Assembly: GCA_963792585.1 (NCBI GenBank)
Contig: CAWBWI010000006.1
Coordinates: 1,006,009-1,070,008, forward strand
Length of the DNA stretch: 64,000 bases
Origin: Candidatus Eiseniibacteriota bacterium
Lineage (GTDB): Bacteria > Eisenbacteria > RBG-16-71-46 > CAIMUX01 > VGJL01
Direction: 5' to 3'
Position 1 is the first letter of the stretch. Each line of letters opens with the position of its first letter. The notes below the pieces were generated by a model, which searched no databases, was not told the origin of the DNA, and saw only the letters and a program-made list of their open reading frames with translations. The position numbers were made by a program, and so were the translations under genes. Shown piece after piece: positions 2,251 through 41,319 of this stretch.

Positions 2251-2285
2251 CTCCTTGCAGTGCGACTCCACGCCGATTCGATACA
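2251..2285 (-). promoter_or_regulatory. Putative ECF-sigma promoter, copy upstream of kamA-ggt
   Basis: Minus strand TGTATC-N18-ACTGCAAGGAG, matching the copies at 4071-4106 and 4752-4787. Confidence 0.65.
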
Positions 2286-2485
2286 TCGATTTCGGGGAAT
2301 TGAAGGAATGTCCTTCCGATGTGCAGAGTGGATCACGGGCGGATCAAGCCGTCGCGCACACACGCACGCATCCAGAGACGATGCGACCGCGCTAGAGAGC
2401 CGCGATGGTGGATGCAGCTACGGCTTGGTAACTGCGGATCGGGGGCGCGGATCCATCCGGCGGGGTGGACGAGGCTCGTCGCGAT

Positions 2486-3985
2486 CTATCGTGGAAGGAT
2501 GCTCACGCGGGAACCCAGCGCTTCTCCTTCCGTCCCGATGCGAACGAAGTAGGTTCCCGGGGAAACGAGACGGGCCGCCTGATCTCTGCCGTCCCACACG
2601 GGCCGGTTCGACCGGCCGAGAACGCGCACGAGCCTTCCCGCGGAATCGAAGATCCGCACATCGAGCTCTCCGAGACTCTCGGGGGCAACGATGCGTACAT
2701 CGCCGGCGCTTGGATTCGGAACGGCGCGGAGATGCTCTCGAGCAAGGACCCCATCGCCCACCGCCGCAATCCCTTCGAGAGCCGCGGGGAGATAGATCCG
2801 TCCGCTGCCGAGCTTGCCCTGGTATGGATCATTGCCCGGAATCTGGTCGATCGGATCGACGGCGGACTCGATCCGCAGTCGGACGACCTCGGGAATCTCC
2901 AGTGGAAGGAGACTTCGTATCAGGGCGGCCTCGCCGGCAACAAAGGGCGTGGCGAAGGAGCATCCGGCCCCCATGGCCCATAGCCCGCCCGGATAGGAAC
3001 TCCGAACGCCGGTACCGGGGGCGGCTACCAGGACCTTGGAATGCCAGTCGGCAAAGGCGGCTTTCGTGTCCAGCGAGTCGACGGCGGTCACCATTTCCGC
3101 CTCTTCCGTCCCGGCGGGATAGTAGAGTTGCTCCAGATTGTCGTTGCCGGCCCCGGCGACGACGATGATGCCGTGTTCCCGGGCCAGCTCGAGCTGATGG
3201 CGAATGATCGCGACCCCGCGGGGAACTCCGAAGCTCATATTGAGCACATGGGCCCCTTGATTCACCGCGTAGCTGATTCCCTTTGCGATCTGGTATGCGT
3301 CGCCGTTGCCCTCGTCGCTGAGGACGCGAATGGGAAGGAGCGTGGCCTCCGGGGCGACCAGAGCCACGATGCCGGCGACCATGGTCCCGTGACCGTAACC
3401 CTCGTCCGCGACGCCGTCCTGATCTTCATCCAGTCCGTTGGCGATCTCCCAGGGACTGCTGTCATCGTCGACGAAGTCGTATCCGAACGGGGAGAGCTTC
3501 GCTTGGATCGCTTCATGGCCGGGATCCACGCCCGTGTCCAGAACGGCAACGGTGACGCCGGCGCCTCGGCTCATCAGGTGCGCGGCATCGAGACCGATTC
3601 GAGGGCCGATGCTCTGATCTTCGTAGTCGACGTAGCCTCCGCCGACGATGACGATCACCATCTGACGGATGGTCTCCGGCGTGTCGTGGAAGTAGTTGGC
3701 CTCGGCCTCCAGGATTGCCGGATCGGTTTCCATCTGCGATGCCAACCCTTCGACGTCACCCAAATCGGTCGCATCGAGAAGGTACAGGTTCCCTTCCGGG
3801 TAGGCGTCCAGTGTGGTGGTCCCCCAAACGGAGTTGACCTCCTCGATGACATGCCCAGGCTGCAGGTTCACAACCACCTGAGCGGCCTCGTAGTCATCGG
3901 CGATCGCCAGGGCGGGCAGGAGCAGCCCGATCGCGCAGAGGACCCGGCCCATCAGCGGTTGCAGAAGCTTCACGTTGCTCCTCAT
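2486..3985 (-). CDS. Secreted S8 subtilase #1 with C-terminal FlgD-Ig/T9SS-like sorting domain
   Basis: Signal peptide after ATG 3985. Catalytic triad VLDTG / HGTMVAG / GCSFATP. C-terminus PNP...DSAGRLVR...WDGRD...GTYFVR. Confidence 0.9.
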   Translation of the reverse strand: MRSNVKLLQPLMGRVLCAIGLLLPALAIADDYEAAQVVVNLQPGHVIEEVNSVWGTTTLDAYPEGNLYLLDATDLGDVEGLASQMETDPAILEAEANYFHDTPETIRQMVIVIVGGGYVDYEDQSIGPRIGLDAAHLMSRGAGVTVAVLDTGVDPGHEAIQAKLSPFGYDFVDDDSSPWEIANGLDEDQDGVADEGYGHGTMVAGIVALVAPEATLLPIRVLSDEGNGDAYQIAKGISYAVNQGAHVLNMSFGVPRGVAIIRHQLELAREHGIIVVAGAGNDNLEQLYYPAGTEEAEMVTAVDSLDTKAAFADWHSKVLVAAPGTGVRSSYPGGLWAMGAGCSFATPFVAGEAALIRSLLPLEIPEVVRLRIESAVDPIDQIPGNDPYQGKLGSGRIYLPAALEGIAAVGDGVLAREHLRAVPNPSAGDVRIVAPESLGELDVRIFDSAGRLVRVLGRSNRPVWDGRDQAARLVSPGTYFVRIGTEGEALGSRVSILPR

Positions 3986-4070
3986 CTCTCTCGGCCCCTG
4001 CCCGGGCGCAGGAACGGCGGGTAACACCCTCGTCGGCCCGGCCCTCGACCATCGGGGGCGACCTGAACGA

Positions 4071-4106
4071 CTCCTTGCAGTCGTCCATATTTCGGCGATT
4101 GATACA
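4071..4106 (-). promoter_or_regulatory. Putative ECF-sigma promoter, copy upstream of S8 #1
   Basis: Minus strand TGTATC-N19-ACTGCAAGGAG. Confidence 0.65.
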
Positions 4107-4206
4107 AAAGGATACCATTCCCCCGTTCCCAGCTTCCATCCCCCGTACCCCAGGGGTGCGCCCGGGGTTTGCGGGCCCGGCGGTCTATCGTGGTAGGATG
4201 CTGACC

Positions 4207-4770
4207 ATGCGTGAGTTGCACGGTTGGGTGGCGGATCTCCAGGCTGGTGACGACGGGGCCTGGAGGGAGTTCATTCGGGTCTTCTCTCGATTCGTCCCCC
4301 TCGTTGCCGGCCGGCTCGGCCTCACGGCGGAAGAAAAGGAGGAAGTCCTCCAGGAGATGACCCTGACCGCCTACCGATCGATCCGGAATCTCCGCGATCC
4401 GGAACGGCTGAGTTCCTGGACGTACACCATCGCCCGCCGGGCGGCCATCACCATGTGGCGCTCCAAGAAACGGCATCCGGGCTCCGAGCATGACGAGGAG
4501 GCGGAATTCGACAGGCTTCCCTCCGGGGAGCCCGCGGTCGATACGATCTTGATCGATCACGAGGAAGGTCAGAAGCTGCGCGAGGCGGTCGCCACGCTTC
4601 GCCCTCTATGCCGTGGGCTCATCGATGACCTCTTCCTGAAGGAACCGCGGCGAAGCTACCAGGAGGTCTCGCAGGAACGGAGCATGCCGATCGGGAGCAT
4701 CGGTCCGACCCTGGCCCGTTGCCTTCAGACCCTTCGCCAGGCATGGAAATCGGTATCAAATACAGGATGA
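4207..4770 (+). CDS. ECF-type RNA polymerase sigma factor #1
   Basis: Region 2 (AWREFIRVF...EEVLQEMTLTAYRSIRNLRDPERLSSWTYTIARR) and region 4 (SYQEVSQERSMPIGSIGPTLARCL). Start is 4198 or 4207. Confidence 0.9.
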   Translation: MRELHGWVADLQAGDDGAWREFIRVFSRFVPLVAGRLGLTAEEKEEVLQEMTLTAYRSIRNLRDPERLSSWTYTIARRAAITMWRSKKRHPGSEHDEEAEFDRLPSGEPAVDTILIDHEEGQKLREAVATLRPLCRGLIDDLFLKEPRRSYQEVSQERSMPIGSIGPTLARCLQTLRQAWKSVSNTG

Positions 4771-4787
4771 GGGTCCTCTGCAATGAG
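4752..4787 (+). promoter_or_regulatory. Putative ECF-sigma promoter overlapping the sigma #1 stop, upstream of anti-sigma-like gene #1
   Basis: GGTATC-N19-TCTGCAATGAG. Confidence 0.6.
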
Positions 4788-4835
4788 TGACCAGTCGTTT
4801 GGGAACCATGTCGAGCCGTTACTAGAGGAGCAACC

Positions 4836-5432
4836 GTGTCGGAGATAACCCGTCCGCAAGATGATCCGCTCCTGCAGGCACCCGAGCTGCGTGAGATGAT
4901 CTGGGCGTTGGAACTTACCTCGGCTCCCGAGTTGAGCCCGCAGAAGGTCGCCACCCTCTGGCGGGAAGTCCGATCGAGGGCATCCGCCGGCGCGGCGCCG
5001 GGCGTTGCAGGAATCCTGAATCAGATGCGCGATGGCTTGGCGCACGCCTTGCGCGAGATTGCCGCGACCCTCGTCCAGGAGTCGCTCGTCCCGTCACCGG
5101 CCGTCCGCAGCACCGAGACGGCCCTGCCGAGGCTCCTGGTTTACGAGACCGATGAGTATGCGATCTCTCTCACGTTTCAGGCGCCCCCCGAGGCGACGCT
5201 TCTGAAGCTCATCGGTCAAGTGGTTCCAAAGCTCGCGCCCGACCTCCCCCCGGGAGGCGAGATCGCCGTGTGGAGCGAGTCCGAGACGAAGTTCGGCCGG
5301 CTTGACACGAACGGCGAATTCTCCGTGGAAGGCGTCCAGAGCGGCGATCTCCACATCGACATCCTGCTCGGGACCGACTCGATTCAGCTTTCTCCGATCC
5401 ACACCGGGGCCTTCCGGGCCAGGGAGGACTAG
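4836..5432 (+). CDS. Soluble putative anti-sigma / CHAT partner #1 (N-terminal helical part plus C-terminal Ig/carboxypeptidase-regulatory-like beta domain)
   Basis: SD GAGGAG before GTG. Lies between the sigma and CHAT genes. Homologous to 23401-24057 (RLLVYE/RQLMFE, IGQVVP/IGQLVP, GRLDTNGEF/GRLSETGEF). No transmembrane segment. Confidence 0.7.
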   Translation: MSEITRPQDDPLLQAPELREMIWALELTSAPELSPQKVATLWREVRSRASAGAAPGVAGILNQMRDGLAHALREIAATLVQESLVPSPAVRSTETALPRLLVYETDEYAISLTFQAPPEATLLKLIGQVVPKLAPDLPPGGEIAVWSESETKFGRLDTNGEFSVEGVQSGDLHIDILLGTDSIQLSPIHTGAFRARED

Positions 5433-5435
5433 AAA

Positions 5436-8246
5436 ATCCCGGACGATCCTGACGAATCGGGCGCCCCGTCTTCCGACGCTCCCCAACTTCTGCGATCGCT
5501 CGAGGATCCGCACTGGGTCCCGAGCTTCCGTGAGGCAACGATCCTGCGAGATCATGTCGCCTCTCTCCTCCAGGCCGACCCGCGACTCGCCGGTCGGATC
5601 GCCATGGATCTCCTGCGCTCCGTTCAGGGCAAGACCTCGGCATCCATCGGCGCGCAAGCCGTCGGATGGAGGGCGCGGGCCGAGTCCCTGCTGTATGCCG
5701 GCGAGTACAAAGCCGCCCGATCCGCTTACGAGAAGGCATGCTCTTGCGCCGGCGCCGCCTCGGAGCATCGTCTTCTCGGCCAAATCCTCGTAGGCAGGAT
5801 CGGCACCCTCCTCGTGATGGGCGATTTCCGCTCGATCCACGCGATGACCCGCCAAGCGGAGGCCTTGCTGCGAAGGAACGACGATCAGGAGTATCTCCGG
5901 CGTCTCCACATCAATCTGGGGAGCGGTCTCTACCATCGCGAGAAGTACGCCGAAGCCTACGCCTCCTTCGCCGAGGCCCTTCGACTGATGGAGGAGGCGG
6001 GCCAGCACGACGATCTGTGGGCGTCCCTGACGCTCAACTTCGGGATCGCGTGCAGCCAGCTCGCGCGCGTGCAGGAGGCGCGCGAGGCGTTCGCGAAGGC
6101 GGAGGCGTACGGCCGCGCCCACGCGCAGGACCGCATGGTGGCCCAGGCGGTGTTCAATCTGGGGGCCCTCGAGGGGCTCCGCGGCGGTTACCGCGCGGCC
6201 CTTCGGTCGCTCACCGAAGCCGAGGAAGCGTTCGTCCGTCAGGGAGTGCAGGAGCTCCTCGCGGCCACCCACCTCGAGCAGGCCCAGATCTATCTCGATC
6301 TATCCATGGCCACCGAGGGCAAGGAGCTTGCCCAGAGGGCGGCCTCCGCATTCACCTCGGAAGGGATGCTCCTCGACGCGCAGCTGGCGCGGATCGCGGA
6401 GGCGCGAAGCCTCGTGATGTTGGGACGGCCCAAGGAGGCGGAGGGGCTTCTGCGCGATGCCGAGCGCTTCTACCGGGCGCAGCACATCGCGGCAAGAAGA
6501 GCGCAGGCCCTGCTGGACATCGCGCTGGCGATGTCGGCCCGCGACGAGACGGCAGCCGCGATGCAAACGGCCCGCAGCGCGCTCAGCGTGGCCGAGCGAT
6601 TGCACCTGGGAAGCCTGACCTGCGCTTGCCGTTGTCTCATCGCAGAGCTGCTCCTCCGAACTGGTGCCGGGCCCAAGGCTGAACGCGCCCTGGCGGGCAT
6701 CGTCCCGGGGCTTTCGAAATTGCCGATGCGCGATCGCCTCGAATACTGGAGCACGGCCGCGCGGGTCGCGGCGTTCCGAGGAATGACCGCGCTGGCCGGA
6801 CGCCGCTACCGCAGGGCAACGCAGTGTTTGGAAGCTCAGAGGGCACTGATTCCGGGTCTCGAACTCCGCACGAAGTCGTTCGAACAGAACGTCCGCGTCT
6901 ACCACGAGAAGATCGCGCTCCTGGCGGGGTCTCGACGCCCCCAACTCGATCGCATCCTGCTCCTGATGGAGCGGGCGCGGGGTAGAACGTTCCGGGAGCT
7001 CGTGGCCGCGCGGGGCCGGCAGTCGCAGGGGGAGATTGCGGAGCTCCGAGCCGTGCTCGGCTCCCTGGTGCGGCGCCTCGACCACCTCGTGATGGGAGAG
7101 CGTCCGGCGGCGCCCCAGGAGGTAGAGCCCCTCCGACGGCAGGTCGTGCAGCTCGAACACCAGATCACCTCGCGCGTGCGCCGGATCGAGACGACGGAGG
7201 GGTCCGTCACCGGAAGCGGTTCGTTCCGAAGGTCATCCCAGATCGTCCCCCTTCTCGCCGCCGACGAGGTGATGATCGAGTACTTCGTAGCGAAGGATCG
7301 AATTCTGGCGGCGGTGGTGGGAAAGCAGGAGCGTTTCCTGCGGACGCTCGAGGCACCACTGCCCAGGCTACGGGATCTCCTCGACCATTTCGGCCTCCAA
7401 CTGGAATCGCTCGCCGCCACCGCGAGCCGACCCTTGGGGGGCCAGGCGTTCCTGCGACGGAGCGCGGAAGCGAAACTGGAGGAGTTCTACTCGTTGCTCC
7501 TCCGACCCATCCTCGGGGATCTTCCCCCCTGCGGACGGCTCACGATCATTCCGCACGACATCCTGCACCAGATCCCGTTCGAGTGTCTTCACGACGGAAC
7601 TCAGTACCTCGATCGTTCTTGGCAGATCACGCGGTGCCCGACGGCAGATTTCCTGATCGAGCGCAGAAGTCGGTCACGGGGGGCCCCCGTAGGGAATACG
7701 GTGGTCATCGCCGGAACTCGCCCCGGATCCCCATTCATCGAGGTGGAAGCACGGCGGGTGCTGGATTCCTGGGAGCCGTCCGGCAGCCGGTTGTTGGTCG
7801 ATCCATCCTCTGCCGATGCTCTGGCCGCCATGAAGGGGGCCCGGGTCATTCACGTGAGCGCCCACGGCAACTTCCGCGGCGACAACCCCCTATTCTCGAC
7901 GCTGCACCTCGGTCGTGAGGTGCTCTTTCTGGCCGATATCCTGGAGACGCCCCTCACCGCCGACCTGGCCGTTCTGAGTTCCTGCGACAGCGGACAAACA
8001 TTCAGTGGCCGAGGGGACGCCCTACTGGGCGTCGCACATGCATTCCTCGCCGCCGGCACGGACCGCCTGGTGGCCTCCCTCTGGCGCGTCCACGATCAAG
8101 CCACGGCTTCCTGGATGGAGGCCTTTCACCGCGCCTTGCGGGAGAGCGGGGACGCCCCGGCGGCCCGCCTTCACGCTTGCCAGGTGGTTCGGGAAGAGTG
8201 GCCGCATCCCTTCTACTGGGGCGGATTCAGCGTTCTCGGAGGCTAG
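5436..8246 (+). CDS. TPR-CHAT (caspase HetF-associated) protease #1; start probably upstream of ATG 5604
   Basis: Long TPR region, LTIIPHDILHQIPFECL, catalytic His (IHVSAHG) and Cys (LSSCDSG), VASLWRVHD, HPFYWGGF. The frame is open back to 5433 and homology with the paralog extends upstream of Met 5604. Confidence 0.9.
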   Translation: MPDDPDESGAPSSDAPQLLRSLEDPHWVPSFREATILRDHVASLLQADPRLAGRIAMDLLRSVQGKTSASIGAQAVGWRARAESLLYAGEYKAARSAYEKACSCAGAASEHRLLGQILVGRIGTLLVMGDFRSIHAMTRQAEALLRRNDDQEYLRRLHINLGSGLYHREKYAEAYASFAEALRLMEEAGQHDDLWASLTLNFGIACSQLARVQEAREAFAKAEAYGRAHAQDRMVAQAVFNLGALEGLRGGYRAALRSLTEAEEAFVRQGVQELLAATHLEQAQIYLDLSMATEGKELAQRAASAFTSEGMLLDAQLARIAEARSLVMLGRPKEAEGLLRDAERFYRAQHIAARRAQALLDIALAMSARDETAAAMQTARSALSVAERLHLGSLTCACRCLIAELLLRTGAGPKAERALAGIVPGLSKLPMRDRLEYWSTAARVAAFRGMTALAGRRYRRATQCLEAQRALIPGLELRTKSFEQNVRVYHEKIALLAGSRRPQLDRILLLMERARGRTFRELVAARGRQSQGEIAELRAVLGSLVRRLDHLVMGERPAAPQEVEPLRRQVVQLEHQITSRVRRIETTEGSVTGSGSFRRSSQIVPLLAADEVMIEYFVAKDRILAAVVGKQERFLRTLEAPLPRLRDLLDHFGLQLESLAATASRPLGGQAFLRRSAEAKLEEFYSLLLRPILGDLPPCGRLTIIPHDILHQIPFECLHDGTQYLDRSWQITRCPTADFLIERRSRSRGAPVGNTVVIAGTRPGSPFIEVEARRVLDSWEPSGSRLLVDPSSADALAAMKGARVIHVSAHGNFRGDNPLFSTLHLGREVLFLADILETPLTADLAVLSSCDSGQTFSGRGDALLGVAHAFLAAGTDRLVASLWRVHDQATASWMEAFHRALRESGDAPAARLHACQVVREEWPHPFYWGGFSVLGG

Positions 8247-8279
8247 GGCGCCTCGCCTCCTCTTCGGGTTCCTCCTCCC

Positions 8280-9365
8280 TCACTTCCCCCCGTACTTCAT
8301 CCGCATGATGTCCTGTGTCGACCGACTGATGCGCTTCCACCGGGCCTGCTCTTCGAGTCGCAGGCGAATGTCCTGCTTCCTCTCGAGGAAGCGCAGCTCG
8401 CGCCGGAGCTTCACGTAGCTCGCGTAGCGCGCCTCCTGCAGGGTGCCGTCCTCGAGCGCCCGGCGCACCGCGCAATCGGGCTCGCTCTGGTGTTGGCAGT
8501 CGGCGAAGCGACACTCCGCAGCGATCTCCTCGATGTCGTGGAACGCCGCGTCCAGACTCTCCTCGTCGGCCCAGAGCTGGACCTCGCGCATCCCCGGCGT
8601 ATCGATGACAATTCCCCCACCCGGCAGCAGGAGAAGCTGCCGCCAGGTCGTGGTGTGCCGGCCGCGGCCGTCGGAGTCTCGAATCTGCGTGGTCTTCAGC
8701 CGCTCTTCGCCAAGGAGACGGTTGATGATCGTGGACTTTCCGACTCCCGACGAACCGATGAGGGCGACCGTGTCTCCCTCACCGACGTACGAGCCGAGCG
8801 CATCGAGGCCGTTGCCGTCGAGCGCGCTCACCGCAAGCACGGTTGCGCCGCCGGCGACGACCTCGATCTCGCGCACCAGAGACGCGGCGTGGGCATTCAG
8901 ATCCGCCTTGTTGAGCACGACCACCGGCCGCACGCCGCTCTCGCGCGCGATGGTGAGGTAGCGCTCGAGCCGCCGCGGATTAAAATCCTTGTCCACGTCG
9001 GTGACGATGAAGAGCGTGTCGAGATTCGCCGCGATGACCTGTGCTTCGGTCAACATCCCGGCCGCCTTTCGCAAGAGCAGCGTCCGGCGTGGCAGCACCG
9101 CGTGGATGATGGCCGTCGAATCGCCGTTCAACTGCAGCGCCACCCAATCCCCGACGGCCGGAAAGTCGAGACGCGATGCGGCCGTGTACCGCAACCGGCC
9201 GGTCACCTCGGCGTCGCGCACTCCCTCGACACAGAAAACCGCGTAACGATCCCGATGTTCTTCCGCGACCCGCGCCGGGATGAACCCGGCGTCATGATGT
9301 GGCTGGAAACTCTGTTCGAAAGATGCCTGCCATCCCAGTTGATGGAGGTCGAATTCGATACCCAT
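8280..9365 (-). CDS. rsgA: Ribosome small subunit-dependent GTPase A
   Basis: Circularly permuted GTPase motifs NKAD, GSSGVGKST, GRHTTT, DTPG, plus the zinc finger CRFADCQHQSEPDC. Confidence 0.95.
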   Translation of the reverse strand: MGIEFDLHQLGWQASFEQSFQPHHDAGFIPARVAEEHRDRYAVFCVEGVRDAEVTGRLRYTAASRLDFPAVGDWVALQLNGDSTAIIHAVLPRRTLLLRKAAGMLTEAQVIAANLDTLFIVTDVDKDFNPRRLERYLTIARESGVRPVVVLNKADLNAHAASLVREIEVVAGGATVLAVSALDGNGLDALGSYVGEGDTVALIGSSGVGKSTIINRLLGEERLKTTQIRDSDGRGRHTTTWRQLLLLPGGGIVIDTPGMREVQLWADEESLDAAFHDIEEIAAECRFADCQHQSEPDCAVRRALEDGTLQEARYASYVKLRRELRFLERKQDIRLRLEEQARWKRISRSTQDIMRMKYGGK

Positions 9366-9483
9366 GACGATTGCACCTCTGATTCTCGGTGAGCCAATGA
9401 TTGCCGAACCCGCTACGCGCGGGAACGGAATATCCGGGTGGAATCGAGGTGTGTTCGGAGAGCGGACTCAGCGGGCCGAGAAA

Positions 9484-9543
9484 CTAGGCGCCGAAAGCGC
9501 CCCCGAGGCACACCGCGACGAGATCAAGAACATGGGCAGTCAT
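9484..9543 (-). CDS. Putative 19-aa leader peptide (MTAHVLDLVAVCLGGAFGA) upstream of rsgA
   Basis: Strong SD AAAGGAGG 9 nt before the ATG, located between a sigma70-like promoter and rsgA. Confidence 0.5.
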   Translation of the reverse strand: MTAHVLDLVAVCLGGAFGA

Positions 9544-9595
9544 TTGGCTGTGCCTCCTTTCGAGTCTTGCGGCAACGGACCTGTTGACTTGAAAA

Positions 9596-9623
9596 ATAGT
9601 AGCGCGTTTGTCGGCGATGTCAA
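9596..9623 (-). promoter_or_regulatory. Sigma70-like promoter for the leader-rsgA transcript
   Basis: TTGACA-N16-TACTAT on the minus strand, in an AT-rich patch. Confidence 0.55.
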
Positions 9624-9652
9624 GCAGTCCGGCCTCCGGCGGTCCCCGATCG

Positions 9653-10483
9653 TCAGACCGATCGGACCCGAACTTCCCTCCGGGGCCGCACGGCCGGTCG
9701 CTCCGCGGGCCATCCCAGCGGCGTCACCGTGACCAGGTAGCGCTCCTTCGGAATCCCGAGGACTTCTTTCGCGTCCTCGCGATTCAGCGCGCCGATCCAG
9801 CAAGTGCCGAGGCCGCGCGCCCACGCGGCGAGCATCAGATGATAGGCCGCGATGCAGCCGTCCTCGATCGGCAGAGGCGAGGCTCCGGGGTCGCTCACGA
9901 TCGCCACGGCCATGGGCGCGCCCCCGATCGGATCGGACGAGCCGGGACGCACCAGGGCCAGGCGATCGAGGATTGCGCGGTCCCTGACCACAACGTACTC
10001 CACCGGCTGCGAGTTGCGCGCCGACGGCGCGAACCGGCAGCTCTCGAGCACGGCCGTCAACGTGGCCTCGTCGACCGCGCGTCCGGTGAACTGCCGCACG
10101 CTCCGGCGGGTGTGGAGCAGTTGCTCGCCGTCCAGGTACGGATCGAGATCGTGCTCGAAGGACTGGAACTCGAGCCGCCTTCCCTCCGGATCGCGACCGA
10201 AGAAGTGGTAGATCCGGTACTTCTCGTCGAGCCTGGGAGCTGCATCCGCGATCGGAGCAAGGCGAGCATGGGCCGCATCGACGCCCGTGCGGTCGGGATA
10301 GAAGACCGTGATCATCGCATCGACATCCGCCTTGCCCGTCGCGTGGAAGCCGACCTTGAGATTGCCGTGGGACAGGATCAGGCAGTCTGCCTGGTCGAGC
10401 CACTCACGCATCCCGACTTCGTCCGTGTAGAAGCGCCGGAGCTTCTCGAGTTCGTTCGTCGCGAAGAAGACGATTCCCGACAT
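9653..10483 (-). CDS. VOC/glyoxalase-like plus nitroreductase fusion protein
   Basis: N-terminal FYTDEVG...FFGRDPEGRRLEF (VOC). C-terminal RRSVRQF, APSARNSQP, LMLAAWARGLGTCW (nitroreductase). Confidence 0.85.
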   Translation of the reverse strand: MSGIVFFATNELEKLRRFYTDEVGMREWLDQADCLILSHGNLKVGFHATGKADVDAMITVFYPDRTGVDAAHARLAPIADAAPRLDEKYRIYHFFGRDPEGRRLEFQSFEHDLDPYLDGEQLLHTRRSVRQFTGRAVDEATLTAVLESCRFAPSARNSQPVEYVVVRDRAILDRLALVRPGSSDPIGGAPMAVAIVSDPGASPLPIEDGCIAAYHLMLAAWARGLGTCWIGALNREDAKEVLGIPKERYLVTVTPLGWPAERPAVRPRREVRVRSV

Positions 10484-10504
10484 CGTTCCCTTCCTCCCGG
10501 AGGC

Positions 10505-10699
10505 TCAGTCCTTGTTCTGGTTCCGCTCCTTCCGCGCAGGCGGCCCCTCCCGCTTCAGGCGCCCCTCGTCCTCGAGAACGCGGCGCAGGACGAACTCGAT
10601 CTGGCCGTTCAGGCTTCTGAGATCGGCATCCGCCCACCGCTGCAGCGCCTCGAGGATCGAGGGATCGATCCGCAGCAGGAAACTCTTCCGCGCCGCCAC
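10505..10699 (-). CDS. Arc/ribbon-helix-helix DNA-binding protein
   Basis: KSFLLRIDPSILEALQRWADADLRSLNGQIEFVL, typical of the RHH genes that follow SPFH genes. Confidence 0.85.
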   Translation of the reverse strand: MAARKSFLLRIDPSILEALQRWADADLRSLNGQIEFVLRRVLEDEGRLKREGPPARKERNQNKD

Positions 10700-10711
10700 G
10701 TCCGTTCCCTT

Positions 10712-11581: not shown

Positions 11582-11600
11582 GGGAACCCTCCTTTACTGA

Positions 11601-11639: not shown

Positions 11640-11650
11640 GAGGGATAACA

Positions 11651-15281: not shown

Positions 15282-15300
15282 ATCGAGGAACCTCCAAAGG

Positions 15301-15969: not shown

Positions 15970-16134
15970 CGGCCCTCCCGGCGCCAGCATACCGATCGCC
16001 CCATGGCCCTGCACGATCGGCTTCTCTTCTGGTAACCATCTTGTGAATTTTGATATTCTTATAACGCTGTCGCATGAATGGCGGAGATGTCGGATCTCCC
16101 GCCCGGGCTCAACCACGCCGGAGGCAATTCCTAT

Positions 16135-18749
16135 ATGACGCGGCCCATGACGATCCTCACCCTCGTCCTAGCCCTGAGCACCATCGCCCTGGCTCCGCCG
16201 GCGGCGGCCGCCCCCGCCCCCGGGCTGGAGGTCTGGTCCCCCGGAGATCCCGACCCGACCATTCCCTTCTCGGATCGGTTTCCCGTCGCCGTCCAGACGA
16301 CGACGGAGTCCGACGCGAGGGTGATCGTCGCCACGGGGATCGACGTCGAGGACGTGCGGCGATACGAGGGCGGCTGGATCGTCCGGGCGAACATCGATGA
16401 GGCGGAGCTCGCCTCGCTCGCCGGCCCGAGCCGGGAGATCGTTCGGCTCCGGAATCTGGCGCTCGAGTCGGCGCGGGCGGAGGGCCGGGATCGTGCATGG
16501 CCGACCTGGGCGGAATACGAGGCGAGCCTCCAGCAGATTGCGCAGGATCATCCGACGATCGTCCGTCTGCTATCCATCGGCCAGACGGTGCAGGGTCGGC
16601 AGATGTGGATTCTCAAGATCACGGACAACCCCGACGTCAACGAGGACGAGCCCGAGTTCAAGTACACCTCCAGCCTTCACGGCGACGAGGTCACGGGGAT
16701 GGAGATGTGCCGCCGCCTGGCGGGCCTCCTGACCGACGGCTACGGCGTCGATCCGACGCTGACCGACTACGTCAACAACGCGGAGATCTGGATCCAGCCG
16801 ATGAGCAACCCCGACGGTTTCGTCGCGGTCTCCCGCTACAACGCGAGCGGCATCGATCTGAACCGCGACTTCCCCGATCCGGTCAACGACCCGGTGGACA
16901 ACCCTGCGGGGCGGGCGATCGAAACGCAAAATCTGATGAACTTCGGCTACGCCCACCGGTTCATTCTCTCGGCGAACTACCACGGCGGCGCGCTCGTCGT
17001 GAACTACCCATGGGACAGCTTCGTGGGATACACGCCGGACGACACCATGATCGAGAACTTCTCGCTCGGCTACGCCTTCCGGAACCCCCCGATGTGGAAC
17101 TCATCGGAGTTCCTCCACGGGGTCACCATCGGTTGGGCTTGGTACATCATCGACGGCGGGATGCAGGACTGGTGCTACAACTGGCGCAATGAGATCGACG
17201 TGACGATCGAGGTCTCGAACACGAAGCGCCCGAGCTGGACGCTGATGGACCAGTTCTGGACCGAGAACAAGGATGCGATGATCTGGTATCTCGCCCGCGT
17301 CTTCGTCGGCGTCCGTGGAATCGTGACCAACGCGGTGACCGGCCTGCCCGTCGACGCGACGGTCGATATCGTCCAGATCGGCAAGTCGATCCGCACCGAT
17401 GCATCGATCGGCGACTACCACCGGATGCTGGAGCCCGGGACCTACACCGTGAAGGTCGACGCGGCCGGGTACGTGTCGCAGCAGATCCCGAACGTGGTCG
17501 TCGTCGACGGCCCGGCAACGCGCCTGGACATCGCCCTCCAGCCGCTGCCGACCTACACGGTCAGCGGGACCGTGACGGAAGAGGGACCGGATCGCCGCTC
17601 GGCGGAACCGTCGAAGCGCGCCGCATCACCGACGGGCAGCTGGTCGGAACGGCGCCGACCGATCCCGCCACGGGCGCGTACGCGCTCTCCCTCCTGAGTT
17701 CGACCTATGACATCCGCGCGACGGCGCCGGGCCACGCTCCGGTGACGCGCCGCATGACCGTCGAACAGGATCGCACCGAGGACTTCGTGCTCGCGCTCAC
17801 CGCCAACAGGATCCTGATCGTGCGGGACGTGGTGGCGACCCGCATCGCGAGCGATCTCGCGAGTCTCGGGAACCTGACGACCGTCGAGGCCTCCAGCGTG
17901 ACCGATCCCGCATCCTGGTCCGGCTACCGCATGCTGGTCTGGAGCGCCGGATCCGCCGCGGACCCGGTCGCGGACGCCACGCGCCGGGCTGGATTGGAGA
18001 GCTATGTCGCAGCGGGCGGCACGCTGCTGATCGAGGGCGGACAGATCGGCTACGACGTCTTCCGCACGCCCGGCTATCCGACGTTCGGGGCGAATGTCCT
18101 GCACTGCTCGGCATGGGATGTGAGCAGCGCCGGACCGATCTCGATCGCGACAGGGCAGTCCGGGCACGCTCTGGTGACGACCCCGAATACGCTGCCGTCG
18201 CAGTACGCGATCAACTACACGGAAACCGGCGACGAGGACGCGGTTCGACCGCTCGCGAACGCCCTCATGATCTACAGGACCCAAGCCTATCCGAACGATG
18301 GCGGGATCATCGTCTATGACGACACGCCGGTCGATCCGGCCCGCGGCCAGATCGTCTACTATGCCTTCAACTACGACAGACTCACCGATACGGCGAACGC
18401 GGTGAGGCTTCTCGAGAACACGGTTGCCTACCTGAGCAGGACGAATCCGGCGGACGCCGGCGAGCCGGTTCCAACTCTCGCGGCGCTGCTCGGCCCGGCA
18501 TTCCCGAACCCAGCGCAGGGAACCGTCCGATTCCGGATCGATCCGCGGGCGGGGCGTTCGCTCCGAGCGGAGGTGATCGACCTGCAGGGGCGCGTGATTT
18601 GCGCGCTGGTCGTTGATGAGGCCGAAGGCGCGCTCACATGGGACGGGCGCACCGGTCTGGGCCGCGTGGCGCCGACGGGAATCTACTTCCTGAAAGCGCG
18701 CAGCGGCACGGAGGAGGCCGCCCGCAGCTTCCTCTGGATCCGTCCGTAG
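16135..18749 (+). CDS. Secreted M14 (N/E-type) zinc carboxypeptidase with regulatory-like repeats and FlgD-Ig domain; one frameshift near 17585
   Basis: HGDE, RYN, DLNRDFP, NYHGG, TIEVS. Adding one G at GAGGGACC (about 17583-17585) joins ORF 16078-17697 to 17742-18749 through TGSPLGGTVEARR...YDIRATAPGH. Confidence 0.85.
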
Positions 18750-18784
18750 GTGCGAGAGCACCAGCGGTCGACGACAAGCGGGGA

Positions 18785-20314
18785 CTAGCGGTCCAGGACG
18801 ATTCGTCCCTGGAGCGATCCTCCGTCGACGTGCACGAAGTAGACGCCGGGCGGGACCGCTCGACCCGAAGCGTCCCGTCCATTCCAGCGCGCCAGACCGG
18901 TGGGTCCGGGTTCGATCGTCCGGACGCGGCGACCCGCTGCGTCGACGACGACCATCCGGGAAAGCCCGCCGGTGTTGCCGAGCCTGAAGGAAACCCCCTG
19001 TCCGACCCGGGCGGGATTCGGGAAGAGTTCGAGGCGCCCTACCGTCAAGCCCGTGCCGTCGACGTCCGCAGTCTTGGGGCTCGCGACCCACGTCGCCATC
19101 CCGTCGAAGCGCCCGCTACCGAGTTGGCCCTCGTAGGGCCCATTCTCCGGGATTTGGTAGATCCCGACGACCCCGAGCCCGACGGTGCCGTAGACAGTCT
19201 GTACGCTTGCGTCGGGCTTCAGCGACAGGACGAGGGCGCACTGCCCGCTGACGAATGGCGCCGAGAAGGACGTCCCGGCTCCGATCGCATACTCCCCGTC
19301 GTAGAAGGGTGCCAGCACTCCATCCCCGGGCGCGGCGACGTCGACGGTCGATCCATAGCTCGTAAAGCTCGTCCGGACGTCGACGGAGTCGAGTGCCGCG
19401 ACGGAGACGACCTGAGGGTCGCTTGCGGGGTAGTAGACGGGATAGTCGGAACCGCCGTTGCCGGCCGCACCCACCATCGCGACCGACAAGTCGTAGGCCG
19501 CGCGGACCTCATGCCTGATGACCATGCACTCCTGGGTCAGCCCCAGGCTCAGGTTGATTACCTGCGCGCCATGCTCGACCGCATAGCGGATCCCCTTGGC
19601 GACATGGAAGGTCGTTCCACGACCTTCGTCGTCGAGGACCCGGATGGGCAGGATCCTCGCATTCGGGGCGACGAGGTGCACGATCCCGGCCACCATCGTT
19701 CCGTGGCCCGCCCCATCATCGGTCAAACCGTCGAGGTCATCATCGGCCCCGTTGGCCTCATCGAGTGGATCCGCGTCGTTATCCACGAAATCCCAGCCAT
19801 TCGGATCGATCGCGCCGTTGAAGGCCGGGTGATCGGGAAGCACCCCTGTGTCGATGACGGCGACCAGGACGCCGTCCCCCATCGTGTGGGACTGGATCTC
19901 GGCGAGACGGATCCGCGTGGTCAGGTGCTGGTCGAGATAATCCGTAATGGTCCCGCCTACGGCGGCGACCATCATCTGCCGCGTGCCCTCGGGGGTTTCG
20001 TTGTCCCACGAGTACTCGGCCTCGACCACGTTCGGATTCTGGCGGATCTGGTAGACATATTCGGCTTCGCTGCCGTCGGGGCACCGCAGCAGGTAGAGCG
20101 GCGGCAGAGAATCAAGCGTCGAGGTGCCATAGAGATCATTGATGACCGAAATCGGCGTCCCCGGAATGAGCTCCACCTGGAGTTGTCCGATTTCCCAGTC
20201 GTCCGCGAAGCTGCGCTTCGCCTCTGCGCCCATGAGCAATGCCACGAGTAAGGCGATGAGCGCGGGCACGAGGGTCAGGCGTCTGCGGCGAATGGAGATT
20301 GTCGAGCGATCCAT
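18785..20314 (-). CDS. Secreted S8 subtilase #2 with C-terminal FlgD-Ig/T9SS-like domain
   Basis: SD GGAGG, signal peptide, VIDTG / HGTMVAG / GTSFSAP. Closely parallels S8 #1 (TPE.RQM, PY.G.LGSGR). Confidence 0.9.
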   Translation of the reverse strand: MDRSTISIRRRRLTLVPALIALLVALLMGAEAKRSFADDWEIGQLQVELIPGTPISVINDLYGTSTLDSLPPLYLLRCPDGSEAEYVYQIRQNPNVVEAEYSWDNETPEGTRQMMVAAVGGTITDYLDQHLTTRIRLAEIQSHTMGDGVLVAVIDTGVLPDHPAFNGAIDPNGWDFVDNDADPLDEANGADDDLDGLTDDGAGHGTMVAGIVHLVAPNARILPIRVLDDEGRGTTFHVAKGIRYAVEHGAQVINLSLGLTQECMVIRHEVRAAYDLSVAMVGAAGNGGSDYPVYYPASDPQVVSVAALDSVDVRTSFTSYGSTVDVAAPGDGVLAPFYDGEYAIGAGTSFSAPFVSGQCALVLSLKPDASVQTVYGTVGLGVVGIYQIPENGPYEGQLGSGRFDGMATWVASPKTADVDGTGLTVGRLELFPNPARVGQGVSFRLGNTGGLSRMVVVDAAGRRVRTIEPGPTGLARWNGRDASGRAVPPGVYFVHVDGGSLQGRIVLDR

Positions 20315-20524
20315 GAACACCTCCAATAGATGCTCTGATTCATGATATGCGCAAACATCATAGCAGAGAGAGCGCGATTCGTTCAAAGCCGTTCCCAGTA
20401 CACCGATTCCCTCCGGGACCTGGAGCTGACCGAAGGGTCAGCAGCGGCCGTCGCGACAAATATCCAAGAAACTGATCTAATAATGATCATGCCATTAGGC
20501 CAACTCACGATTCGACCCGAGAGG

Positions 20525-23404
20525 CTATCTCCCGATGCCTCCGAGCGACGCGAATGAGGCCCAATGCCATGGATGGGGACGCCGGATCATGAGGGAACGC
20601 ATCGCGCGGCCCAGCGCGATCGCCGGGGCGTCCCCCGTCGCGAACGAATCGTAGAAGAACTCCATCAACTCGAGGGTCGGGTCGTCCTGGATCGGCCAGA
20701 GACTCGCAACGACCGAGGAGGCACCCGCCTGCAGAAAGCCTCGAGCAAGCCCGATCCACTCGTCCCCTACGGGAGCGGCGCCCCGGCCCGAAGAGCAAGC
20801 CGTCAGCACCACCGTGGACGAGGGAAGGCGAAAGTCCGCCAGGTCGTGAACGAAGAGCGGCCCATCCGCCAACTGGACGAAGGAGTAGGCAGGGTTGTCG
20901 CGACGCAGCATTCCGTGGGCCGCGATGTGGATGAGGTGCGCCCGTCGACCTTCCCGGCGCATGCTTTCGATCGTGGGCGCGAGGTCGGAGTGAATCTCCC
21001 AACCGGGCAGGTTTGCCTGAACGCGCTCCACCTCGACCGCCACCGAAGGCAGTAGATCCGAAGGGACCCCCGCGACGAAGGCGGCCCTCCCTGCGCGCGC
21101 CGGAGCGGGAGGAAGTGCGCGCCAGATACGCGCGCTGGGGACGATGGCGATGTCCGTCCGCTCGGCGATGTAGCCGTCGCGGCCCCGCAGAGCATGAAGC
21201 GGCACGCGATGGATCGCTCCGTGCGGAGAGACGATCCAGCGCAATGACGCATCCACGCCCATCTGCTCGAGAGGCTCCCAGAGGAGTCCGTGGAGCTCCG
21301 CGAGAATCGCGTCGGCGGAGGATTGAAGACGCCGCTCCGCGGCGCTCGGCGCACACGATTCGGTGGCGGCCAATTGCGCGCCGCGCACGCTCGTCATGGC
21401 CGCAGCGGTCCACTGGAAATCGAGTCGGTCGGTCAGACGGGCGAGCCGTGCGCCGAGATCGTTCGCCAGGCGGCGCCAGACGGAGCCATCGCGGGTCACG
21501 GCGAGCGCCACTGAGAAATCAGGCCCGATGTGGTAGGCGAGGAAGCCCCAACCCCGTGGGAGATCACGTTGGAGTTCCGGTAGCGAGGGGGGCTCTCCGC
21601 TTCCGATCCGGTCGCGACCGGATCGACGCTCTCGATCCTCGCGCAGGGCCTTGCTCCACTCCCCCTCCGTGGCGATCAAGCGCGGGCGGAGCTCGATTGC
21701 GCGCGCGCGATCCTCGGGCGAGCCGAGTTCCAGGCGGGAGATCCGCGCGTGCAGCCAGGCAAGCCGACGCCGCGCAGCGGTGAGGCGACGATCCCGCGGC
21801 CTCTCCCCCTCGAAGAGGTAGGCATCGGGGTCGCGCAGGCGATCCCAGAGGCTCTGGGCGCGGGCGCGTTCCGTCCACTCGAACAGCCGATCGATCGAAG
21901 GCCGCGGGCGATCGATCTCGATCGCGAGGAGACGGTCGTGGAGGTGGTTCTTGTCGCCGAGGAAGGCGATCTTCGAGTCTTCGGTCGGGATTCGAGAGCG
22001 CAGATCCTCGAGTCGGGTCAGGGCGTTTCGGTAGGAGCGGCTCGCCTCGCCGGACTTGCCGGCTTGCTCCTGCGCCCTACCGAGCGCCTCGAGCAACCGA
22101 TAGGCGGGGATCGGATAGACCTGCTGGGGCAGGCGACGGAGCAGCCGGCGAAGCCGGGGAATTCGCTCCTCTCCCGTCTCCCGCCGCTCGAGCAGCTCAT
22201 CCAGAAGAACGGTTGCCGTCGACTCCCATCGGATCAGACCGAGCCGCTCGAAGGCATCGATGGCGGCGCGCACGCGTCGCTCCGCCTCGGCGCGCCCCCC
22301 GCGCCGGCGCAGCGCCTCCCCTTTCAGCATGTCCATCAAGGCGACACGGGGCGCGTTCTTCTCCTTCCGGAAGAGTCTCTGGCCCCGCCGGATCCGATCG
22401 AGCGCCGTCGGGAGATCCCCGAGCGCCATGCTCGAGAGGGCCTCCTGGCTGAGAGCCAACGCCTCGTCGTATGCGAGCCCCTCTTCAGCGAACAAGGGGA
22501 TCGCCTGTCTCGAGAGATCGAGCGCCTCCTGATGGAGGTTCAACTGGTGGTAGATCTCGGCTCGGTTGAGAAGACACTCCGCTTCGAACGCAGGATGCTC
22601 TGTTTGGTGGAAATAGGTGGTCAAGAGGCTTATCTCTCGGAGTGCCTTGCCAAAATCCGCCCTTTGAGCGTGCACATAGGCGGCATTCATCCGAACTTGG
22701 GCCTGGAGAACCTCGAAACCGCGCTTGCCGGTTTCCTTCTCCAGCCGCTCGAAAAGGGCCAGCGCCTCTTCGTCTCGGTCGAGCTGGCTCAGGGCGACCC
22801 CTCGATTGACTTCCAATCCGAGGACCGTTTCGTCCCGGATGCGAAGCCTGCGAAAGATCTCCGAGGCCCGTTCGATCTCCTCGAGCGCCGGGCCGTAGCG
22901 GTCGTGCTGGAAGTGGCTCGAGCCGAGGTTCATGGCGAGCTTGGCCAGATAGGTCTGATCCCCCGCCTCCTCGAGATTGCGGCGGGCTTCGATCACGGCT
23001 TTCTCGGCGTCGCGATGGCGGCCGAGGAGCGAGAGGACATGGACGGCGCCGACGAGGAGTTGACCGAGAAGGCCCGGAGCACTCGCCCGCCGCCAGGCCT
23101 CGGCAGCCTGGGTGTAGGAGGCATTGGCATCACGCATCCGACCGGAGAAGAGGAGCGACTCGGCCACCGCGCGGTGGCCCCAACCGAGGGAGAGGGGATC
23201 GCCGAGAAGCTCGGCGAGTTCGAGGGCGCGCGAGGCGATCCGCCGGGCGGCGGAAGCATCGGTGTGGTAGAAAGGGACCGCCTCCATCCGGAGGGCCTGA
23301 ACCCAGCCGGCTCCGGTCCCAGGTAGTCCTTCCCGAACGCGCCTCCCTAGCTCCTGGGAGGAGGCATCAACCAGATCCTTCGTGCTCGGAGGACTACCGG
23401 TCAC
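20525..23404 (-). CDS. TPR-CHAT protease #2
   Basis: TPR region, SPHGAIHRVPLHAL, catalytic His (IHIAAHG) and Cys (LTACSSG), VASLWPIQD, HPWHWASF. Start overlaps the upstream stop (GTGA). Confidence 0.9.
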   Translation of the reverse strand: MTGSPPSTKDLVDASSQELGRRVREGLPGTGAGWVQALRMEAVPFYHTDASAARRIASRALELAELLGDPLSLGWGHRAVAESLLFSGRMRDANASYTQAAEAWRRASAPGLLGQLLVGAVHVLSLLGRHRDAEKAVIEARRNLEEAGDQTYLAKLAMNLGSSHFQHDRYGPALEEIERASEIFRRLRIRDETVLGLEVNRGVALSQLDRDEEALALFERLEKETGKRGFEVLQAQVRMNAAYVHAQRADFGKALREISLLTTYFHQTEHPAFEAECLLNRAEIYHQLNLHQEALDLSRQAIPLFAEEGLAYDEALALSQEALSSMALGDLPTALDRIRRGQRLFRKEKNAPRVALMDMLKGEALRRRGGRAEAERRVRAAIDAFERLGLIRWESTATVLLDELLERRETGEERIPRLRRLLRRLPQQVYPIPAYRLLEALGRAQEQAGKSGEASRSYRNALTRLEDLRSRIPTEDSKIAFLGDKNHLHDRLLAIEIDRPRPSIDRLFEWTERARAQSLWDRLRDPDAYLFEGERPRDRRLTAARRRLAWLHARISRLELGSPEDRARAIELRPRLIATEGEWSKALREDRERRSGRDRIGSGEPPSLPELQRDLPRGWGFLAYHIGPDFSVALAVTRDGSVWRRLANDLGARLARLTDRLDFQWTAAAMTSVRGAQLAATESCAPSAAERRLQSSADAILAELHGLLWEPLEQMGVDASLRWIVSPHGAIHRVPLHALRGRDGYIAERTDIAIVPSARIWRALPPAPARAGRAAFVAGVPSDLLPSVAVEVERVQANLPGWEIHSDLAPTIESMRREGRRAHLIHIAAHGMLRRDNPAYSFVQLADGPLFVHDLADFRLPSSTVVLTACSSGRGAAPVGDEWIGLARGFLQAGASSVVASLWPIQDDPTLELMEFFYDSFATGDAPAIALGRAMRSLMIRRPHPWHWASFASLGGIGR

Positions 23405-24057
23405 TCATCCAGGCCTGCTTCCAGGTCGATCGGATCGCTGACCAACTCCCGGCCGGCCCACGCAATCCGTATCCGGACCGGGCCACCGGGGATCCCATCG
23501 ATGCGGAACTCCCCCGTCTCGGAGAGGCGCCCCCGGGGCGATCCCTGCTCGACCTCGACACGAACCACCCCACCCCGGAGGCGATCCGCCGGGTTCGAGG
23601 GCACCAGTTGACCGATCACCGTATAGGATCCGGAACCGGCCTCCACCTGGAGGTGGAGACTCCCGAGTGGTGATTCGAACATGAGCTGCCGATGCTCGGA
23701 GACTGCGGAGCCCCGGATTCCCTGCATGGACGCGCCGATCGCCGTGTCGAGGACGAGTCCCAGGCGGACCTCCTCGAGGACCCGCCGGACCTTCTCCTTC
23801 ACCGCACCGATCGCGGTGCGGGACGTCTGCCCCTGCCGGAGCGCCGCGATCTTCTCGAGCGCGGAATGAACGAACGCCTCCGGGGCCACAGACAACGGCG
23901 GGACGCGCAGGGCGGCCAGGATCTCTCTGGTCGAGGCGACCCTCTCGGAACATCGCTCGCAGCCCGTCTCGAGATGGCGGCGGACCTGCTCCACGGCCGG
24001 CGCATCGTCCGACTCGCAATACTCCAACAGGTTCTCGTCGCTCGGATGCCGGTTCAT
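23401..24057 (-). CDS. Soluble putative anti-sigma #2 with zf-HC2-like motif and C-terminal beta domain
   Basis: MNRHPSDENLLEY...HLETGCERC (ZAS/zf-HC2-like). SD GGAGG. No transmembrane segment. Confidence 0.75.
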   Translation of the reverse strand: MNRHPSDENLLEYCESDDAPAVEQVRRHLETGCERCSERVASTREILAALRVPPLSVAPEAFVHSALEKIAALRQGQTSRTAIGAVKEKVRRVLEEVRLGLVLDTAIGASMQGIRGSAVSEHRQLMFESPLGSLHLQVEAGSGSYTVIGQLVPSNPADRLRGGVVRVEVEQGSPRGRLSETGEFRIDGIPGGPVRIRIAWAGRELVSDPIDLEAGLDE

Positions 24058-24124
24058 GGCTCGCCCCTCCAGGAAGGTGGTGTTCTGTTTGCTCGGCGGC
24101 TCCCTGTGAGATTGTCATTCGAGA

Positions 24125-24151
24125 AGTCGACCTAGGAGCTGGGCTGATACA
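24125..24151 (-). promoter_or_regulatory. Putative ECF-sigma promoter upstream of anti-sigma #2
   Basis: TGTATC-N18-ACT immediately after the sigma #2 stop, in the same position as the module 1 copy. Confidence 0.55.
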
Positions 24152-41317: not shown

Positions 41318-41319
41318 CA

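Follow-up and report, generated by a model that had tools for sequence, protein, structure and literature searches.

A bipartite motif at the 3′ ends of two ECF54-like sigma factor genes as a probable promoter of anti-sigma/TPR-CHAT operons

The stretch analyzed here, a 64-kb window of the genome of a Candidatus Eiseniibacteriota bacterium, holds two related cassettes that were identified from a list of open reading frames (ORFs) and profile scans, each with a sigma factor gene of the extracytoplasmic function (ECF) type (Table 1). In cassette 1, the kamA-like gene and S8 #1 on the minus strand are divergent from sigma #1, a 198-aa ORF and TPR-CHAT #1 on the plus strand. Cassette 2 lies wholly on the minus strand and comprises sigma #2, a 218-aa ORF, TPR-CHAT #2 and S8 #2. 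Both sigma factors exceed the cut-offs of PF04542 and TIGR02937; they share 33% identity, and neither has a closer relative within the 5.4 Mb genome. The dyad motifs of TPR-CHAT #1 (His810/Cys850, numbered from 5436) and TPR-CHAT #2 (His830/Cys870) are intact, and no signal peptide was seen in either protein. S8 #1 has a signal-peptide-like N-terminus and a FlgD-like C-terminal tail. Four genes of the two cassettes are preceded by a bipartite motif, (K/S)GTATCA-N16/17-(G/C)(A/T)CT, which in our judgment is highly probably the −35/−10 promoter of these two ECF54-like sigma factors.

Table 1. Genes and promoter-like sites of the two cassettes (positions within the window)
Feature	Position	Strand	Details
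kamA-like gene (KamA-family radical SAM protein, aminomutase-like)	885..2180	−	TIGR00238 195 bits, just below the cut-off of 199; CxxxCxxC at residue 142
Site 1, before the kamA-like gene	2251..2285	−	TGTATC (2285-2280)-N18-ACTGCAAGGAG; ACTGCA from 2261
S8 #1 subtilase	2486..3985	−	PF00082; weak PF13860; D/H/S motifs visible in translation
Site 2, before S8 #1, divergent from sigma #1	4071..4106	−	TGTATC-N19-ACTGCAAGGAG
ECF sigma #1, GSIGPxxARC type	4198..4770	+	PF04542, TIGR02937; start 4198 or 4207
Site 3, before the anti-sigma #1/CHAT #1 operon	4752..4787	+	GGTATC-N19-TCTGCAATGAG
Putative anti-sigma #1, 198 aa	4836..5432	+	same-length homologues
TPR-CHAT #1	5436..8246	+	PF12770, PF13424
S8 #2 subtilase with FlgD-like tail	18785..20314	−	domain scan; no ECF54-type site upstream
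Sigma-70-like promoter match before S8 #2	20357..20386	−	TTGAAC-18-TATGAT, TG extended; consensus match only
TPR-CHAT #2	20525..23404	−	domain scan and dyad motifs
Putative anti-sigma #2, 218 aa	23401..24057	−	profile matches, model, complex score
Site 4, before the anti-sigma #2/CHAT #2 operon	24122..24151	−	TGTATC-N18-ACT(TCT); 18-nt spacer, CGACTTCT
ECF sigma #2	24157..24810	−	PF04542, TIGR02937

A preliminary description of this DNA had listed these four strings as −35/−10 elements, and all four were recovered at the coordinates and on the strands it gave. It had placed them 48-86 nt before the next start codon; each does point toward its gene, and the measured distances are 70, 85 (to the ATG at 3985), 48 and 67 nt for sites 1 to 4. 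The spacing of the two elements recalls an arrangement that we take to be of the sigma-E type. Site 3 covers the final 19 nt of sigma #1's coding sequence, which stops at 4770; its −35 box is formed by GTA TCA, two codons (Val-Ser) of the tail of sigma #1. Site 4 begins 6 nt past the sigma #2 stop. An ATG at 4783 starts a reading frame of just 21 codons that does not match the frame of anti-sigma #1. Among the substitutions listed for related strains, the two within site 1 (2265 and 2269) both fall in the spacer. An AGGAG tail is not kept in related sites and was left out of the motif.

Within the window, the loose pattern GTATC-N18/19-WCT is modestly enriched, with 8 matches against 2.3 expected and 2 of 100 shuffles reaching 8. 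The strict pattern KGTATC-N18/19-WCTGCAA, picked post hoc, has three matches in the 5.4 Mb genome, all of them in the window, and the exact 11-mer common to sites 1 and 2 occurs three times in the genome. Because the loose pattern was only modestly above chance in the window, the motif was tested in other genomes. Homologues of sigma #1 were present in 75 of the 206 genomes of the same phylum and also in Actinomycetota, Chloroflexota, Acidobacteriota, Pseudomonadota and Armatimonadota, the cross-phylum set being the best 80 of 593 matches; the genome collection gave at least 600 pattern matches to ECF54-like sigma/CHAT/subtilase cassettes. Scanning metagenomes with the sigma #1 protein alone returned no match, and an alignment used in its place gave 13 loci. 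From 123 loci, omission of six lacking the GSIGP anchor, three duplicates and the own locus left 113 for analysis. Six short runs of a home-made Gibbs sampler converged on no motif, and k-mer enumeration was used instead. In the GSIGP-anchored regions behind the sigma gene of the 113 loci, the most enriched 6-mers were GTATCA (36 loci, 1.3 expected) and GTATTT (28 loci, 1.2 expected). A bipartite pattern, written after inspection of the data, was found in the downstream sense orientation (just after the sigma gene or inside its 3′ end) in 67/112 loci, against 1.3 expected. The corresponding counts were 2/112 for antisense, 3/113 for internal and 3/107 for further-downstream controls. Ahead of the sigma gene the pattern occurred in 8/112 loci in the sense orientation (3.2 expected) and in 14/112 in the antisense orientation, the direction of the divergent gene (2.8 expected).

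The location of site 3 in coding sequence raises a different account, that the sigma C-terminal Val-Ser is conserved at the protein level and that the other sites reflect chance or local promoter duplication. The exact 11-mer of sites 1 and 2 and the modest enrichment of the loose pattern fit this account as well. Site 3 lies at +59 from GSIGP, a position constant throughout the sigma #1 clade, where 30 of the 37 genes carry GTA-TCA (16) or CTA-TCA (14). The DNA word is thus retained despite the Val/Leu change, in codons that are rare in the own genome (GTA, 3.3% of Val; CTA, 2.0% of Leu; TCA, 3.6% of Ser). Outside the sigma #1 clade, the motif lies past the stop codon and at variable distance. 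Since the rare codons are kept across the Val/Leu change and the post-stop position elsewhere is variable, protein conservation does not explain site 3. Together with the footprinting and the motif before unlinked-looking kamA homologues in four other genomes, these observations largely refute the protein-conservation or chance account, to which we assign only a minimal likelihood.

A matrix was built from 80 such sites of other genomes, none from the own genome. It placed sites 2, 3, 4 and 1 at ranks 2, 4, 9 and 51 of the 253 genome matches of at least 12 bits, site 2 scoring 20.4 bits and site 1 14.9 bits. When 53 sites made up the matrix, the genes downstream of the four sites ranked 1, 2, 4 and 16 of 4152 predicted upstream regions, the kamA-like gene being 16th. 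A fifth match in the window, at 53429 (16.9 bits), lies inside coding sequence 586 nt from the next start and was treated as chance. Of the top 30 genome matches, 12 fall within 250 nt before a start, compared with 8% of random positions. The interpretation of the motif as −35/−10 elements is supported by footprinting, strand and position specificity, covariation with the sigma tree, genome-wide excess and a match to the ECF54 prediction discussed below.

No site was found upstream of sigma #1 (4.5 bits) or sigma #2 (5.3 bits), in agreement with the earlier suggestion that the sigma factors do not drive their own genes. The suggestion that this is unusual did not hold up: according to the available text of PMC7776599, a study that searched for motifs in upstream DNA alone, autoregulation occurs in about 50% of ECFs, and its lack is unremarkable because about half do without it. 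A sigma-70 scan found no promoter before sigma #1 or sigma #2, and a housekeeping promoter of the two sigma genes is therefore unproven; one weak sigma-70 match lies at 25297-25268, ahead of a small upstream ORF, and a TG-x-TAGGAT right before 4207 (sigma #1) was noticed by eye only. Upstream of S8 #2 there is likewise no ECF54-type site (best score 0.4 bits); the sigma-70-like consensus that precedes it has 2 matches in 6.9 kb, against 0.4 expected.

To relate the motif to the sigma factors, a quick tree of 135 rows was built and rooted at the midpoint. Sigma #1 belongs to a 37-row clade (Shimodaira-Hasegawa-like approximate likelihood-ratio test, SH-aLRT, 96) with the site inside the gene and almost always the longer spacer (19 nt). 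Sigma #2 belongs to an 18-row clade (SH-aLRT 99) in which the site follows the stop codon, the spacer is mostly the shorter one (18 nt) and the −10 box is CGACTWCT-like. Acidobacterial and betaproteobacterial clades carry GTATTT with CTGT. A downstream score of at least 10 bits was reached in 14/17 sigma #2-clade loci, a partly circular count, since such regions went into training the matrix. The motif varies with sigma phylogeny and therefore behaves as a cognate promoter should. The alternative that another regulator binds the sites, be it a different ECF, an activator or a repressor, could draw on further, more distant ECF matches in the genome. It is improbable in view of a motif that tracks the phylogeny of this sigma across phyla, is strand-specific and agrees with the ECF54 prediction. 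An excess of the motif also accompanies the sigma #2 clade: the strict pattern occurred 165 times in the 18 genomes with that clade, versus 67 times when the spacer was shifted (higher in 15 genomes, equal in 1 and lower in 2), and the counts were 74 versus 70 in 41 genomes of a family (f18) that neither sigma query matched. In the own genome, the strict pattern count peaks at the shorter spacer (9, versus 0-5 at others).

Whether the spacer separates the two sigma factors is less certain, and we place this slightly short of an even chance. The promoter could be real while both sigma factors read all sites interchangeably, forming one shared regulon in which the spacer base merely drifts. Identical −35 boxes, the longer spacer in some sigma #2-clade loci, and site 1, where a spacer of 18 nt is joined to the CTGCA tail found in sites 2 and 3, speak for such sharing. 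Nearly all scored sigma #1-clade sites have the longer spacer and most sigma #2-clade sites the shorter one, the −10 boxes differ by clade, and the two clades co-occur in many genomes, all of which argue for separate readers; we regard the shared regulon as plausible but do not favor it.

The kamA-like gene is probably a conserved target, and of sigma #2. Five other genomes of the order yielded seven kamA homologue matches, two without upstream DNA; the motif was upstream of four of the remaining five (11.9-18.5 bits), three of these combining a sigma #2-type −10 with the shorter spacer, whereas 0.7% of own-genome upstream regions reach 12 bits. All four genomes with a motif-bearing kamA homologue carry a sigma #2-clade gene, and kamA is for this reason likely to be mainly under sigma #2. 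The target list of the preliminary description (the anti-sigma/CHAT operons, S8 #1 and the kamA-like gene) stands, except that sigma #2 is a likelier reader of site 1 than the neighbouring sigma #1. A search for terminators gave none between S8 #1 and kamA, so that transcription from site 2 may also extend into kamA.

Across the genome, home-made gene calls (4155 genes) gave 24 upstream regions with at least 13 bits in the sense orientation and 10 among antisense controls. FlgD-like tails are present in 6 of the 24 motif genes, S8 #1 included, versus 269/4152 overall (Fisher p=0.003). The best off-locus candidates (C1:1296483, C1:1299461, C1:140142, C1:1288321, C2:237137, C3:804973 and C1:118218) have signal-peptide-like starts and the shorter spacer, and their Pfam domains, where named, are SBBP, BNR, FG-GAP and IPT/TIG. 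No defence genes were found among the candidate targets. A DksA/TraR zinc-finger gene (C3:1082766-1083143) with the motif upstream (13.9 bits) is a possible non-secreted target. The FlgD-like tail, found in 269 of about 4150 predicted proteins, resembles a secretion sorting domain.

The protein encoded at the +1 position behind each sigma gene is, by profile and model evidence, likely an anti-sigma factor, predicted to bind sigma through a class I domain. A profile of 56 family members matches RsiW (E=2.5e-7), ChrR (1e-4) and RslA (3.7e-4), and weakly the DdvA N-terminus (E=0.03). Among 68 aligned members, zf-HC2 matches 8, CarboxypepD_reg (PF13620) matches 11 and the HxxxxCxxC residues are present in 47; anti-sigma #2 alone gave no PF13620 match. 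In the model of anti-sigma #2 (mean predicted local distance difference test, pLDDT, 87), a helical N-terminal domain is followed by a flexible loop containing R115 and a C-terminal beta-sandwich, and no membrane helix was found. The residues of the zinc-binding class I domain are H4, H28, C33 and C36, and the predicted helices span residues 7-15, 20-30, 34-50 and 60-77; H28/C33/C36 in a three-helix bundle plus a predicted sigma-binding fourth helix correspond to the class I architecture. R115 is invariant (68/68) and sits in a low-confidence loop between strands (LxxDS..GVRG). A Foldseek search of the model against the PDB gave no match at E≤0.001, the best rows being Ig-like sandwiches and ChrR at E=0.02. 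The predicted complex of sigma #2 and anti-sigma #2 scored 0.79 versus 0.00 for the best control, with contact agreement of at least 84% and partner pLDDT of at least 73 across runs; the mark used is reached by 116/157 solved and 2/215 mismatched pairs and applies only roughly here, as our own alignments were used. The predicted interface centres on anti-sigma #2 residues 45-74, a stretch still present in anti-sigma #1. The latter is without the N-terminal zinc finger and retains the following helix, the conserved Arg loop and the beta-sandwich. Three homologues of anti-sigma #1 are likewise 198 aa long (59-93% identity) with the zinc finger also gone, so that the short zinc-less protein is real and a frameshift is ruled out as the cause. 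In three sigma #2-clade loci (L163, L164 and L168), an unrelated-looking helical N-terminus replaces the zinc finger of the +1 protein.

The system resembles the ECF54 group. In the available text of PMC7826278, ECF54 is 100% actinobacterial with a predicted promoter of GTATCAG (−35) and CTCC (−10), carries a carboxypeptidase-regulatory-like protein at +1, with a subtilase and TPR-CHAT close by, and is given no putative anti-sigma; proteolytic control is proposed there and repeated in PMC8999054, as far as the latter could be consulted. The cassettes in the window share the ECF sigma, the carboxypeptidase-regulatory-like +1 protein, the nearby subtilase and TPR-CHAT, and the −35 GTATCA. In contrast to the CTCC of ECF54, the −10 elements here share the CT core and continue GCA, TAC or TCT. 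Unlike what is described for ECF54, the +1 protein belongs to a family mostly with a zinc finger, matches RsiW, ChrR and RslA and passes the complex test, and the site stands behind the sigma gene (4/26 in the actinobacterial clade). The two sigma factors also group with non-actinobacterial sequences, the actinobacterial homologues standing separately (SH-aLRT 98), and named loci in or beside their clades are labelled Candidatus Eisenbacteria. Because the taxonomic and no-anti-sigma features of ECF54 do not apply, the system is filed as ECF54-like rather than ECF54.

Parallels also extend to two other systems, and ours belongs to neither. Like type III-E Csx29/Csx30/CASP-sigma, as presented in the available text of PMC10028731, it combines a TPR-CHAT protease, a soluble anti-sigma, an ECF sigma and sigma sites within the locus. 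In contrast to Csx29, the CHATs in the window match NF041237 at only 29-35 bits (cut-off 300); the scanned proteins of the window showed no Cas7-11 or CRISPR array, and none of the 48 ORFs in that scan had a Cas domain. Unlike Csx30, the anti-sigma resembles RsiW/ChrR, and the outputs are secreted proteins and a KamA-like enzyme. Like Myxococcus xanthus DdvS/DdvA (PMC11506125, available text), a zinc-binding class I anti-sigma domain is coupled to a TPR-CHAT. DdvA is a single membrane protein whose CHAT is periplasmic, and expression of ddvS comes from a promoter of its own, whereas in the window the anti-sigma and CHAT are separate ORFs without an evident membrane segment and the sigma has no upstream site. 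Anti-sigma #2 shares the N-terminal HxxxxCxxC three-helix domain with the anti-sigmas of SigW/RsiW, SigE/ChrR and SigL/RslA and differs from these in having a carboxypeptidase-regulatory-like beta-sandwich at the C-terminus and no membrane anchor or cupin, and anti-sigma #1 differs in naturally lacking the zinc part.

Taking the evidence together, we give a probability of about 75% to the explanation that the motif is a promoter at or behind the 3′ end of each sigma gene, which drives the anti-sigma and the TPR-CHAT and probably not the sigma itself. In the proposed mechanism, a separate promoter, probably a housekeeping one, would supply sigma, which the anti-sigma would keep bound; a ligand would bind the cytoplasmic TPR-CHAT, and this protease would then cut the anti-sigma, with the invariant Arg of the LxxDS..GVRG loop as candidate cut site. 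Once free, sigma would raise both the anti-sigma (negative feedback) and the protease (positive feedback) and turn on effectors. Sigma #1, with its 19-nt spacer and CTGCA/CTAC −10, probably acts on its own locus, the divergent secreted S8 among its targets there, and sigma #2 (mostly 18-nt, CGACTWCT) likely serves a small dispersed regulon of the kamA-like gene and some five to ten mostly secreted proteins, several with FlgD-like tails. As a guess, the secreted subtilase might be linked to the cytoplasmic protease through a peptide product sensed by the TPR.

For cleavage of the anti-sigma by CHAT itself, we consider the odds evenly balanced. The promoter and the anti-sigma could be correct and release occur otherwise, the zinc site sensing oxidation or metal or the CHAT processing another substrate as regulon output, which is credible but not favored. 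Conserved zinc ligands in most members, the position of CHAT itself downstream of the promoter, and DdvS being freed from DdvA by zinc-site disruption (according to the available text of PMC11506125) are compatible with this. Anti-sigma #1 and the actinobacterial +1 proteins, which have no zinc finger and retain the Arg loop, and the CHAT linkage that persists across phyla speak against it. The joint reading would be a widespread CRISPR-independent cytoplasmic protease switch, in which a soluble zinc-finger anti-sigma is cut at an invariant Arg by TPR-CHAT, a non-autoregulated ECF54-like sigma uses a promoter in its own last codons, the paralogues are insulated by one spacer base, one of them runs a secretome regulon (FlgD-tailed proteins and the KamA-like enzyme), and the subtilase possibly makes a peptide sensed by the TPR; as a whole, this combination is rather doubtful.

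Several observations weigh against the promoter-and-switch explanation or parts of it. Relatedness of the genomes means that the footprinting counts overstate independence, and a few sigma genes do have an upstream sense site, a rare arrangement by clade (3/37, 1/18, 5/54 and, among actinobacterial loci, 4/26). RNA contigs crossed divergent genes or passed the −35 box and are therefore uninformative on start sites and expression. The spacer split is imperfect, several sigma #2-clade loci carrying the longer spacer, and site 1 mixes the 18-nt spacer with a sigma #1-type CTGCA. The complex score may reflect likeness to solved sigma/anti-sigma structures, and the prediction covers the sigma #2/anti-sigma #2 pair; the choice of substrate for CHAT is our inference. 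Many candidate targets are chance matches, since sense exceeds antisense just about 2.4-fold. The dispersed regulon is small, lineage-specific and uncertain gene by gene, because a reversed-pattern control in the own genome gave 11 versus 13 real matches, and the motif precedes only 3/11 homologues of three off-locus candidates and, at 10 bits or more, only 11/32 related S8 genes.

Some further features of these loci were noted. Anti-sigma #1 and CHAT #1 share one frame, parted by a single TAG (5430-5432). The CHAT #1 frame is open from 5433, its first ATG lies 57 codons in at 5604, and a strong ribosome-binding site precedes the ATC at 5436 (region 5421-5604); a non-canonical start at this ATC or readthrough is possible. 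The string GAGGAGCAAC directly precedes a GTG at kamA (2181-2195), S8 #1 (3974-3985) and anti-sigma #1 (4825-4836), and related strings occur ahead of kamA homologues (loci L125 and L128). In close relatives of sigma #1, a small secreted CarboxypepD_reg protein with its own motif copy follows CHAT (L112:12231-12629, L132 near 12340 and L133 near 4295); the window showed no gene of this kind at the corresponding position. Two loci (L116 near 5966 and L136 near 7968) have the motif before the same 800-aa glycosyltransferase-like gene beyond S8, a family assigned by eye. Elsewhere in the own genome, C1:1654800-1663300 (L191) brings together a gene resembling S8, a CHAT domain and an ECF sigma that is more distant, and at least four further CHAT genes are present. 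In the rest of the window, a carB-like gene is split across three overlapping ORFs (38171-41958) and a MoxR-like gene across two (54015-55668), and a single ORF (59438-62824) combines two AAA domains with an M41 peptidase; these splits and the fusion may be assembly indels.

In silico, the promoter of this uncharacterised ECF54-like system is well supported. Its motif core is largely known, since its −35 box matches the published ECF54 prediction GTATCAG. In the literature searched, which covered subscription papers little and for which Table S2 and the logos of PMC7826278 may bear on novelty, we found no report of the downstream or in-gene promoter position, the clade-specific spacer, the anti-sigma, or the kamA or secretome targets, and no experimentally studied member of ECF54-like sigma/CHAT/subtilase cassettes. 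Surveys confined to upstream DNA can miss this promoter because of its position downstream of or in the sigma gene. The promoter, the predicted anti-sigma, the candidate cut site and the target list together make the proposed proteolytic control of ECF54 testable, and insulation by the spacer has its natural test in the two paralogues with near-identical motifs. Synthetic biology could also gain a compact protease-responsive switch from a soluble, CHAT-gated sigma.

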